DNA from: a virus
Lineage: Duplodnaviria; Heunggongvirae; Uroviricota; Caudoviricetes
DNA length: 3,816 nucleotides
Strand: one strand, 5' to 3'
IMG/VR virus record: IMGVR_UViG_2609459834_000012
Span: 1-3,816 of that record
Part shown: positions 1,707-3,816 of the stretch, piece after piece
Layout of the letters: every line of letters starts with the position of its first letter
Numbering within the stretch: the first letter of the stretch is position 1
Program-made: the position numbers and the translations under genes
The notes under the pieces: model-generated
Seen by the model: only the letters and a program-made list of their open reading frames with translations
The model's database searches: none
Told to the model about the DNA's origin: nothing

Positions 1707-2734
1707 TGGCAAAAAATGACTTTAAAGCGTTTGCAACTGATCGAAATGCCAATGTTATGTCGCAGGAGGAATGGGAAGCGTTGCCTGCGCTTATATCCGG
1801 ATTTACAGCAGGGAAAGCATCCAGTGCGCAAGTCAATAAGGTTATTCGGCAGGCCAGCTTTATTGCTGCAGCTCTGGCCCAGTTTGTAAGTGATAAAACG
1901 CAACGGGATGTGCTTGATAATGGTGATCTGCCCGGTTTTGTTGAATTGCTGGGATCGGGGTTTGCTGTTGAATACCTGAGCCGCAAGAATCCGTTTGGCG
2001 ATATCAAATCGGATGGCACTGTGCAAACGGCTCTCGAAAACCTTGGTATTAAAAACGCATCAACAACACAGGTGGGTTTAGTCCGGTTAACGTCATCGCG
2101 GGTATCGGGTGCAGAGGATATTGCAGCCACAGCTAATGCTGTCGCGCAAAACTATACGGATATAAAGGCGCTGCAAAATAAGACTCAGGATGCAACTACT
2201 ACTCAGAAAGGTATTGTTCAACTTACATCATCAAGGGTTTCCGAATCTGAAACTCTTGCTGCAACCACAAAAGCAGTGGCGTTGAATTATGCGGACATAC
2301 AGGCGTTGCAAGGCAAGACCAATGATGCAACCCCAACAAACAAGGGAATTATCCGCGTATCTGATTCCAGAACATCGACGGAATCTGGTGTTGCTGCATC
2401 ATCACTTGCTGCATCACAAAACTATTCAGATATGAAAGGGTTGTTTGGTCAATGCGGAATGAAATCTAGAAATCTCGGTGTCGTATACACCAACAGCCAG
2501 TCTTTCGCCATATTTGTAAGCGTCAATGCGGTGCTGTCTGACGGTAGTTCATTTCTGAGCGCCAACGTTAATGTGGATGGTAATTCGGCTAATTTTCGCG
2601 GCTCTCAGACAACAAATCTTGCAGGGCAAAGAGCAACTATCGCATTCATGGTTCCTGCCGGTGCGACCTATATTGTGCAGCAGTTTTCAGGAACAGTGTC
2701 AGATGTTACCTGGGTAGAGGTGGATAAAAAATGA
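1706..2734 (+). CDS. Tail fiber protein (receptor-binding fiber with tandem phage-fiber repeats); alternative start at 1688
   Basis: Three tandem ~44-45 aa repeats of the classic tail-fiber motif G-[IV]-x-x-L-[TS]-S-x-x-S-x-x-E-x-x-A-A-T-x-x-A-V, as I recall from P2 gpH and related fibers. The 1706 start (MAKNDFKAF...) is preferred because it overlaps the upstream stop as TGATG and has GGGAG about 10 nt upstream. The ORF-track start at 1688 has its nearest purine-rich run only 1 nt from the ATG. Stop TGA at 2732-2734 overlaps the chaperone start. Confidence 0.85.
2054..2452 (+). repeat. Three in-frame tandem tail-fiber repeat units (~132-135 bp each) inside the tail fiber gene
   Basis: Protein-level repeats: [44 protein letters not shown] / [45 protein letters not shown] / [44 protein letters not shown]. 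The DNA copies are clearly diverged, so this is an old duplication rather than a recent one. Confidence 0.75.
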
Positions 2735-3099
2735 TAACAATGATGAAGTATTACAAAGATGAAAATAACGTCGTATATGCCTACGATGCGTATGGCACAC
2801 AGGATGCTTTTATCAAAGAAGAGCTTGTGCCAATCACCAGAAGTGAGGCTATGGCAATTATTAATCCCCCACCGACTCATGAACAACTCATCCAGGCTGC
2901 TGAAAATGAGCGACAGCGATTACTGTCCGCCGCTGATGCAATTATGCTCGACTGGCGCACAGAGCTGATGCTGGGTGAAATCAGCGATGCCAACAGAGCT
3001 AAACTTTCGGCGTGGCTTTTATATAAGAATCAGGTTAAGGCTGTTGATGTAACAACCGACCCTGAGCATGTTAACTGGCCTGTCATCCCGGAACTTTAA
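2731..3099 (+). CDS. Tail fiber assembly chaperone (Tfa; Mu U / P2 gpG / lambda Tfa family)
   Basis: 122-aa ORF. The C-terminal region [58 protein letters not shown] follows the conserved Tfa pattern, including the terminal W-P-x-x-P. ATG at 2731 overlaps the tail fiber stop (ATGA), with GAGG/GGA 6-10 nt upstream. In-frame alternative starts exist at 2740 and 2743. Stop TAA at 3097-3099. Confidence 0.85.
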
Positions 3100-3105
3100 A
3101 CCATA

Positions 3106-3150
3106 CTGGTCTTGCTACATCAATGCGCATCAGCAAGACCAGCTATTTTC
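3106..3150 (+). terminator. Candidate intrinsic terminator of the tail operon: 11-bp perfect stem, 15-nt loop, short T tract
   Basis: CTGGTCTTGCT (3106-3116) and AGCAAGACCAG (3132-3142) are exact reverse complements. The loop ACATCAATGCGCATC contains the palindrome ATGCGCAT (3123-3130). The stem is followed by CTATTTTC, and the element begins 7 nt after the chaperone stop. The loop is long and the T tract is only 4 T, so terminator strength is uncertain; it could instead be a protein-binding inverted repeat. Confidence 0.4.
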
Positions 3151-3184
3151 AAACTAAGCAACATAGCCCTCCGCTACTCCTCCT

Positions 3185-3204
3185 GTTCGAAACGAACCTT
3201 TTTT
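3185..3204 (+). other. Short palindrome GTTCG-AAA-CGAAC followed by a T6 run (weak terminator-like element or binding site)
   Basis: GTTCG (3185-3189) / AAA / CGAAC (3193-3197), then C and TTTTTT (3199-3204). The stem is only 5 bp. The T run leads straight into TATAAC (3204-3209), a possible -10 hexamer for the invertase gene with no convincing -35 partner. Confidence 0.3.
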
Positions 3205-3236
3205 ATAACCATCAAAAATCTGGTGATGCTTCGCCG

Positions 3237-3263
3237 TTTCTCCTGTTTTCATAACAGGAGAAA
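3237..3263 (+). promoter_or_regulatory. Perfect 11-5-11 palindrome overlapping the invertase Shine-Dalgarno (candidate SD-sequestering hairpin or operator)
   Basis: TTTCTCCTGTT (3237-3247) / TTCAT / AACAGGAGAAA (3253-3263) are exact reverse complements. The right arm contains the SD AGGAG (3256-3260), 7 nt upstream of the invertase ATG at 3268. The left arm carries the anti-SD-like CTCCT. Confidence 0.45.
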
Positions 3264-3267
3264 TCCC

Positions 3268-3816
3268 ATGATTTACGGTTATGCCCGAGTATCAACAAAC
3301 CACCAGGACACTGAATTGCAACTAACGGCGCTCAAGTCAGCGGGTTGTGAGAAAATTTTTGAAGAGCATGCCAGCGGGAGGAAATCGAATCGGCCGGTTC
3401 TAAAACGGCTGATCGCCATTATGCAGCCGGGGGATGAACTGGTGGTCTGGAAGCTGGACAGGATAGGCCGCAACGTTCTGCATGCGCTGTTGATGTTCCA
3501 GCAGTTACAGGAAAAGGGTATCAACTTCCGCAGTATTACCGATGGCGTGGATCTCAAAACAGCCAGCGGCCGCTATAACTTTCGTAACATCCTTTCCGCA
3601 GCACAATATGAATCTGATCTTAATAGCGAACGTACCTTAGCAGGGCTGGCCGTAGCCAGGGCAAAAGGGCGAGTTGGTGGTCGCAGGCCTAAGTTCACGG
3701 ATGAGCAATGGCGGGAAATGGGGGAGCGGATGGCAACCGGTGAATCACGACAAAGCGTATCAAAAACGTATGGAGTAGGGCTCTCAACTCTGTATAAAAA
3801 GTTTCCAGCTAGCTGA
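3268..3816 (+). CDS. Small serine recombinase, DNA invertase of the Hin/Gin/Cin/Pin family
   Basis: 182-aa ORF starting MIYGYARVSTNHQ, with the catalytic serine in the conserved YxRVST motif near the N terminus. Further matches to the family as I recall it are VVWKLDRIGR, VGGRRPK and the C-terminal helix-turn-helix GVGLSTLYKKFPAS (Hin and Pin end similarly). Strong SD AGGAG is 7 nt upstream; stop TGA at 3814-3816. The ORF-track version starting at 3112 uses a TTG inside the terminator hairpin and is almost certainly an artefact of the open frame. Confidence 0.9.
   Translation: MIYGYARVSTNHQDTELQLTALKSAGCEKIFEEHASGRKSNRPVLKRLIAIMQPGDELVVWKLDRIGRNVLHALLMFQQLQEKGINFRSITDGVDLKTASGRYNFRNILSAAQYESDLNSERTLAGLAVARAKGRVGGRRPKFTDEQWREMGERMATGESRQSVSKTYGVGLSTLYKKFPAS

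Follow-up and report, generated by a model that had tools for sequence, protein, structure and literature searches.

The gene for the serine DNA invertase Pin, which closes the window (the whole 3,816-nt stretch of DNA analysed here), is preceded by an 11-bp hairpin whose 3′ arm contains the pin Shine-Dalgarno (SD) sequence, and this element probably acts in cis within the pin mRNA, hiding the SD and throttling pin translation. DNA invertases must be scarce so that the switching of tail fibres, and with it of host range, stays rare, and to our knowledge the means by which invertases of the phage Pin group are kept scarce is poorly documented. A simple answer would be a strongly conserved hairpin that covers the ribosome binding site and works without a further factor; it would also explain the steady behaviour of the pin module across unrelated phages and behind strongly transcribed late genes. 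Hiding of the SD in a hairpin is an ordinary, well-known kind of control. The genes of the window and the parts of the hairpin are as follows.

1-1029: Baseplate_J protein
1026-1706: DUF2612 protein
1688-2734: tail fibre
2731-3099: tail-fibre assembly protein
3237-3247, + strand: 5′ arm of the hairpin, TTTCTCCTGTT (sequence, fold, alignment)
3240-3244, + strand: anti-SD CTCCT, within the 5′ arm
3248-3252, + strand: hairpin loop TTCAT, 5 nt (sequence)
3253-3263, + strand: 3′ arm of the hairpin, AACAGGAGAAA (sequence, fold)
3256-3260, + strand: pin Shine-Dalgarno AGGAG, within the 3′ arm
3268-3816, + strand: pin, serine DNA invertase of 182 aa, starting MIYGYARVST (ORF, Pfam)

The hairpin at the pin start codon

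The arms TTTCTCCTGTT and AACAGGAGAAA are exact reverse complements and form an 11-bp inverted repeat around a 5-nt loop, in which the anti-SD CTCCT at 3240-3244 pairs with the SD AGGAG at 3256-3260. The pin ATG (3268-3270) lies 4 nt past the 3′ arm and 7 nt past the SD, and the dyad of the palindrome runs through the single base C3250 (11+5+11 bp). An earlier reading made from the sequence alone had described the stem, the loop, the AGGAG in the 3′ arm and the 4-nt distance to the start codon, and all of these can be read directly in the DNA. Its wording of a perfect 27-bp palindrome is right for the 11-bp inverted repeat and too generous for the 5-nt loop, which is non-palindromic; similarly, its span of 3237-3270 begins at the correct base and has an end that takes in the spacer and the ATG. 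Such a stem is not expected by chance in DNA of this composition, as resampling the window 300 times under a first-order Markov model never produced a perfect stem of at least 11 bp with a 3-8 nt loop, and the longest stem in these resamples averaged 7.1 bp with a maximum of 10. A search for a second copy of the palindrome in the window found none, and an Rfam search gave no match, with best scores of 11-17 bits against gathering thresholds of 55-117.

The expectation of the sequence-only reading that this segment forms a stable RNA hairpin is borne out by the predicted folds, both alone and in longer contexts. As RNA, 3237-3263 has a predicted energy of -14.1 kcal/mol by itself (z = -5.6), and the 61-nt context folds at -20 kcal/mol (z = -4.2) with none of 200 shuffles equally stable, while the 121-nt context gives z = -5.0. 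The hairpin is retained in the MFE and centroid folds of both contexts, and the predicted pairing probability of the pin SD is 1.00. Opening the region from -15 to +12 of the pin start costs 19.1 kcal/mol, compared with a mean of 9.2 kcal/mol in start regions of neighbouring phage genes, where an equal cost is found in only 4 of 181 controls. The palindrome folds alike on either strand (-14.1 vs -13.7 kcal/mol). On these modelled energies, a transcript with both arms must fold, and an SD held in a -14 kcal/mol stem must initiate poorly.

In the proposed mechanism, a transcript containing 3237-3263 would fold into the 11-bp stem with the SD in its 3′ strand and a perfect anti-SD in its 5′ strand, and the 30S subunit would bind only the rare unfolded state, giving very low translation initiation. 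Low initiation would keep the invertase scarce and inversion of the tail-fibre segment rare, and the level of invertase would be insulated from changes in upstream transcription. As no upstream sequence that competes for pairing with the anti-SD is present, the hairpin looks like a fixed throttle rather than a switch. We infer both that transcription covers the 5′ arm and that selection has acted to keep translation low. In practical terms, the 5′ arm must be removed where such invertases are to be expressed or used as genetic switches.

Conservation among pin relatives

The product of pin matches the Pfam families Resolvase (5.6e-39) and HTH_7 (1.5e-9), and the gene is 99.5% identical in DNA sequence to the invertase gene of HK225 and, over the aligned stretch, 94.7% identical to pinL of phi80. 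The invertase together with its leader is 94-99.7% identical in HK225, mEp237, phi80 and 141 complete E. coli genomes. The pin module is found in unrelated phages, including the siphoviruses phi80, HK225 and mEp237, P2-like myoviruses and the present baseplate-J type myovirus. Since the module moves between unrelated phages, any factor acting on the hairpin would have to come with the module or from the host, and the working of the module in unrelated phages and with Pin proteins that are 79% identical fits a factor-independent element.

Homologous pin genes conserve the palindrome, as a comparison of loci drawn from isolate genomes, IMG/VR and metagenomes shows. The hairpin arms are invariant apart from the terminal base in 18-20 distinct leaders, which come from Escherichia, Trabulsiella, Kluyvera, Pseudocitrobacter, Shimwellia, Apirhabdus and metagenomes. 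The inner ten stem pairs are identical in every pin of the clade (79-100% protein identity), 9 of the 11 pairs never vary within it, and a variant leader (L032) has a C.A mismatch in the stem. The surrounding sequence is freer: the loop occurs in four forms (TTCAT, TTTAC, TTCAC and TTTAT), the spacer between hairpin and ATG is 4-5 nt long in about nine forms, and the stretch of ~30 nt that separates the stem from the crossover site is variable at many positions. In viral contigs, the pattern TTCTCCTGTT-N5-AACAGGAGAA has 89 matches, and all 80 of those that were checked lie immediately before an invertase ATG, with none away from an invertase start. A multi-copy operator of a phage regulator was considered and rejected, as each of these 80 viral occurrences is a single copy before pin.

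The palindrome has already been flagged in the phi80 record (GenBank JX871397, Rotman et al. 2012), which labels both arms as the repeat 'IR3' upstream of pinL, without a function; the 'IR4' of the same record is merely another short perfect inverted repeat. IR3 is the same element as that of the present phage, with 11-bp arms (CTTCTCCTGTT / AACAGGAGAAG), a loop of 5 nt and a distance of 5 nt to the pinL ATG, and differs in having C-G as its terminal pair where the present phage has T-A, and TTTAC as its loop. A search of the literature on invertase leader hairpins and pinE start sites found nothing usable.

In the phi80 type, the outermost pair is thus changed from T-A to C-G on both sides, which makes it the one pair of the 11 that is doubly changed. 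A scan of metagenomes for arm variants found nothing new except one hybrid (L531), which has U.G at the same outermost pair. Judged from these sequences, the double change at the terminal pair would count for RNA pairing, as would the U.G form. The freezing of both arms, without wobble in the inner ten pairs, appears stricter than pairing alone requires, and a sequence-specific DNA site would also fit it. Because nine of the 11 pairs do not vary, covariation within the clade is nearly uninformative, and with a double change in a single pair RNA pairing and a sequence-specific DNA site are not separable within the clade.

Crossover sites and the palindrome as a DNA site

The sites at which the invertase is expected to act lie elsewhere in the window.

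2031-2056, + strand: left-hand crossover site CTCTCGAAAACC-TT-GGTATTAAAAAC, in the tail fibre gene (pattern match)
3183-3208, + strand: right-hand pix-like crossover site CTGTTCGAAACG-AA-CCTTTTTTATAA (homology start, module junctions)

A search of the window for an AAACC-NN-GGTTT-like pattern matched 2038-2049 and 3190-3201 and did not match the palindrome, and the core of the left site is inverted relative to that of the right. Similarity to HK225 and E. coli prophages starts abruptly at 3190, and homology ends at 2047 in many E. coli and phage matches among those listed. In relatives, the right-hand site reads TTCTCCCAAACC-AA-CCTTTTTTATAA, and its left half TTCTCCCAAACC equals, in the K-12 sequence compared, the inverted repeat of the e14 P segment, CCTTCTCCCAAACCAA (PMC12529663). 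At the AA core, one and the same cassette end with its left half-site (…CCTCCTGTTCGAAACG-AA) runs on into three different invertase modules, the three junction backgrounds being 3100-3196 of the window and two E. coli prophages (L404 4530-4640 and L405 4530-4640), which pins down the exchange point. Both prophages have the same fibre-tip and assembly cassette, one of them P2-like with the same type of palindrome and the other with a classic TGGCATGAT leader. The pattern of these junctions suggests that phages swap cassettes with one another at this site.

The invertible segment ends at the right-hand site, and the palindrome lies 29 bp beyond that site; with the crossover sites mapped at 2031-2056 and 3183-3208, the palindrome is outside the invertible segment and should be kept separate from these true sites in annotation. 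The segment itself, 2045-3194, is only 1.15 kb long and holds one cassette of fibre tip and assembly protein, with no alternative cassette on its opposite strand; relatives have two assembly genes between the same flanks. Simulated inversion gives a tail fibre of 125 aa instead of 348, and because of this truncation the present copy would either switch the fibre on and off or be the remains of a decayed switch. At 3185-3203, the left half of the right-hand site forms GTTCGAAACGAAC followed by CTTTTTT, which is terminator-like in the present orientation, and since this signal would be lost on inversion, read-through into pin may depend on orientation. The tail fibre gene also has tandem repeats of the Phage_fiber_2 type (Pfam PF03406) at 2100-2420 and short DNA repeats such as TTGCTGCATCA, present twice at 2391-2416.

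The sequence-only reading had mentioned a non-canonical recombination site as a less likely role for the palindrome, and this does not survive the mapping of the real 26-bp sites elsewhere and the lack of their defining features. There is virtually no chance that the palindrome is a crossover site for the invertase: it adjoins the invertase gene and has some resemblance to the real sites in the motif TTCTCC, but these are mapped by homology breakpoints and by module junctions exactly at the AA core, and the breakpoints fall at 2047 and 3190 rather than at 3250. The palindrome is moreover of odd length with a single central base, instead of two 12-bp half-sites and a 2-bp core, it lacks the AAACC-NN-GGTTT core region, and it has no partner copy in the window. 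The argument already drawn from the odd 5-nt spacer against a classic 2-bp core is well founded in view of the 11+5+11 bp geometry.

It is unlikely, if still credible, that the palindrome serves as DNA as the operator of a dimeric protein, most plausibly Pin itself, which would bind it as a non-cleaved accessory site, overlapping the transcript start or the RBS, in autoregulation; such a role may coexist with the RNA effect. Conservation of the arms goes beyond their pairing and extends to their sequence, with a centre that varies, and there is one copy per phage, always beside pin, as an autoregulatory site predicts. Each arm has TTCTCC as its outer six bases, as does the commonest pix half-site, TTCTCCCAAACC, of relatives and e14, and in the palindrome these bases lie only 0.5 bp closer to the dyad, in a 25-bp as opposed to a 26-bp site. 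This match is, however, largely forced by the anti-SD CTCC, and the inner AAACC / GGTTT, which is the best conserved part of the real half-sites, is absent, with TGTTTT agreeing with CAAACC at 0 of 6 positions. The symmetric change of the outermost pair from T-A to C-G is predicted by a hairpin and not by a protein site, and one palindrome goes with Pin proteins whose identity is as low as 79%.

Unlikely as well, and slightly more so, is a dual role in which the RNA hides the SD and a Pin dimer binds the DNA without cleaving it, at an accessory site of 25-bp spacing that has TTCTCC as its outer half-sites. If true, DNA invertases would have an autoregulatory subsite of the res kind, and the freezing of the arms as sequence would be explained. 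We know of no description of a res-like accessory or autoregulatory subsite for the Hin/Gin/Cin/Pin invertases.

Transcription into pin and comparison with other leaders

An SD-hiding hairpin in the pin mRNA depends on transcription that enters upstream of the 5′ arm. The features that bear on this are listed below.

3106-3150, + strand: terminator-like hairpin beyond the gene for the tail-fibre assembly protein, with 11-bp arms at 3106-3116 and 3132-3142, then CTATTTTC
3202-3207 and 3225-3230, + strand: weak candidate pin promoter, -35 TTTATA and -10 GATGCT with a 17-bp spacer (read by eye)
3222-3235, + strand: small hairpin GGTGA-TGCT-TCGCC, 5-6 bp, -6.9 kcal/mol (fold)

The pin gene sits directly 3′ of the late tail-fibre operon, and read-through from this operon must cross two terminator-like hairpins, that at 3106-3150 (-17.2 kcal/mol, z = -4.4) and that at 3185-3197 with its T-run. 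A promoter scan of the + strand from 2900 to 3500 made no call. The candidate read by eye, which is below the threshold of the scan, has its -35 in the right half of the crossover site, and A2 and T6 of its -10 are mostly conserved in the leader alignment; with low confidence, and going by its sequence, it would start transcription at ~3236-3237, the first base of the stem. The small hairpin at 3222-3235 falls within 3221-3236, which the terminator-like scan flags, and is conserved as GGYGA-N4-TCGCC, with 96.7% of alignment cells paired and variants that are mostly U.G or G.U, compatible with RNA of the + strand. The U-rich 5′ arm of the SD hairpin comes right after it. This small hairpin could be an attenuator-like RNA element or could overlap the weak -10, and as an RNA element it would imply transcription from further upstream. 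With a start at ~3236-3237 or further upstream, the whole stem would be in the mRNA either way, and the sequence has no -10-like hexamer that would place a start after 3247.

As the palindrome itself forms a stable stem, and as LexA boxes are predicted nearby in phi80, it might be taken for a transcription terminator or a LexA box, both of which are highly improbable. No T-run follows the stem, which is succeeded by TCCCATG on the + strand and by CGGCGAAG on the - strand, and the terminator scan made no call on the palindrome. A LexA box has the form CTGT-N8-ACAG, and the palindrome, with CTGT-N7-ACAG, is one base short of it.

Three further observations concern the same region. The sequence TCCTCCTGTT at 3178-3187 is a copy of the 5′ arm with one mismatch, just inside the invertible segment and 60 bp upstream; read-through RNA could pair it with the 3′ arm, and the likeness is probably a coincidence because the other strand there codes for the short end of the fibre in its inverted form. 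On the minus strand, a promoter-like site at 3268-3295 (TTGATA, 16-bp spacer, AATCAT; 9/12 matches) overlaps the pin start codon with its -10, and antisense RNA made from it would run across the palindrome. The site may be a chance match, and its position in coding-constrained sequence makes its conservation uninformative. A 43-codon ORF without an SD (3123-3254) reads through the 5′ arm and ends at the TAA of the loop, and in relatives with a 5-nt spacer this frame stops at the TGA of ATGA. As each phage has a different upstream flank, the ORF probably has no significance. Translational coupling through this ORF was rejected as a general mechanism, as it has no SD, starts inside the invertible segment and has a left flank that differs in each relative.

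Leaders of other invertases give a broader, if modest, indication of the same tendency. Across 29 invertase leader types of unrelated sequence, the mean opening cost is 12.6 kcal/mol compared with 9.2 kcal/mol in controls (p = 9e-7), and the predicted SD pairing is 0.76 compared with 0.67; SD pairing probability is a weak discriminator and the opening cost is more informative. Of the 29 types, 22 have a sense strand that folds better than its antisense, and since the controls share this bias the excess in invertase leaders is modest (p = 0.015). G.U wobbles, which are usable by RNA only, contribute to pairing of the SD in the P1-type cin (GCUUGCUAU/AUAGUGAGC), the P2-like 500465-1 type (AUCAUCUCC/GGGGAUGAU) and two further types (L283/L285), and in the mEpX1-type leader a GGUGA SD pairs with UCACC. 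RNAalifold analysis of 26 leaders of the classic clade found no shared SD helix and no covariation, only an invariant GGCAU/AUGCU pairing, so that the family argument is one of energy statistics, and these modelled signals are modest. The proposal that an SD-occluding hairpin lowers invertase translation is strengthened by the stability, the conservation, the linkage to the start codon, the opening cost and this family trend, and is held back by the double change being confined to one of 11 pairs.

The classic Gin/Cin/Pin clade has a different conserved element, TGGCAT(G/C)AT, which is nearly invariant ~30 nt upstream of the start codon and is seen in Mu gin, e14 pinE and P2-like leaders (L097, L492 4640-4690, L099 and others). 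Besides resembling an extended -10, this element is complementary to the AUGCU of the start region. Read as an extended -10, TGGCATSAT would start transcripts after the anti-SD, and a fold-back arrangement like that of IS10 is possible in this clade. In the fold-back control of the IS10 transposase, the native transcript starts inside the hairpin and only read-through RNA is silenced. The corresponding arrangement for the present pin, in which the native promoter would fire in or after the 5′ arm and give translatable mRNA, and only read-through RNA of the strongly expressed late operon would have both arms and be silenced, is quite improbable. It would agree with the good extended -10 of the classic clade and the start after the anti-SD that this implies, with the TATAAA in the 5′ arm and loop of the P1-type cin hairpin, and with the position of pin directly downstream of the late operon. 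The promoter assignments in other clades are themselves only inferred, however, and in the present clade nothing -10-like is found at 3232-3245, the variable loop leaves no conserved -10 there, and the best -10, GATGCT, predicts a start that includes the whole hairpin.

Several known systems provide a measure for these readings. The hix, gix, cix and pix sites of the Hin-Gin-Cin-Pin family are like the palindrome in their dyad symmetry, in their position beside the invertase gene and, for the commonest pix half-site, in the outer TTCTCC; they have a 12+2+12 structure with an inner AAACC, whereas the palindrome spans 25/27 bp around a single central base and has neither AAACC nor an inverted partner. 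Subsites II and III of res, in the resolvase systems of Tn3 and gamma-delta, are bound by dimers, uncut and of non-canonical spacing, and they repress tnpR. In comparison with these, the palindrome is a putative site only, with a half-site similarity to pix of 6/12. The SD-hiding hairpin proposed for the pin mRNA is closest to the hairpins of IS10 and the MS2 coat gene, in which, as proposed for pin, an upstream anti-SD pairs with the SD of a gene whose product has to be scarce, and the control is purely cis and free of factors. In the MS2 series of de Smit and van Duin, expression reportedly goes down about tenfold per 1.4 kcal/mol beyond about -6 kcal/mol, and the predicted stability of the pin hairpin is far past this point at which expression starts falling. 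The native mRNA of IS10 lacks the full hairpin, whereas the pin mRNA, by the best guess at its promoter, is predicted to include all of it.
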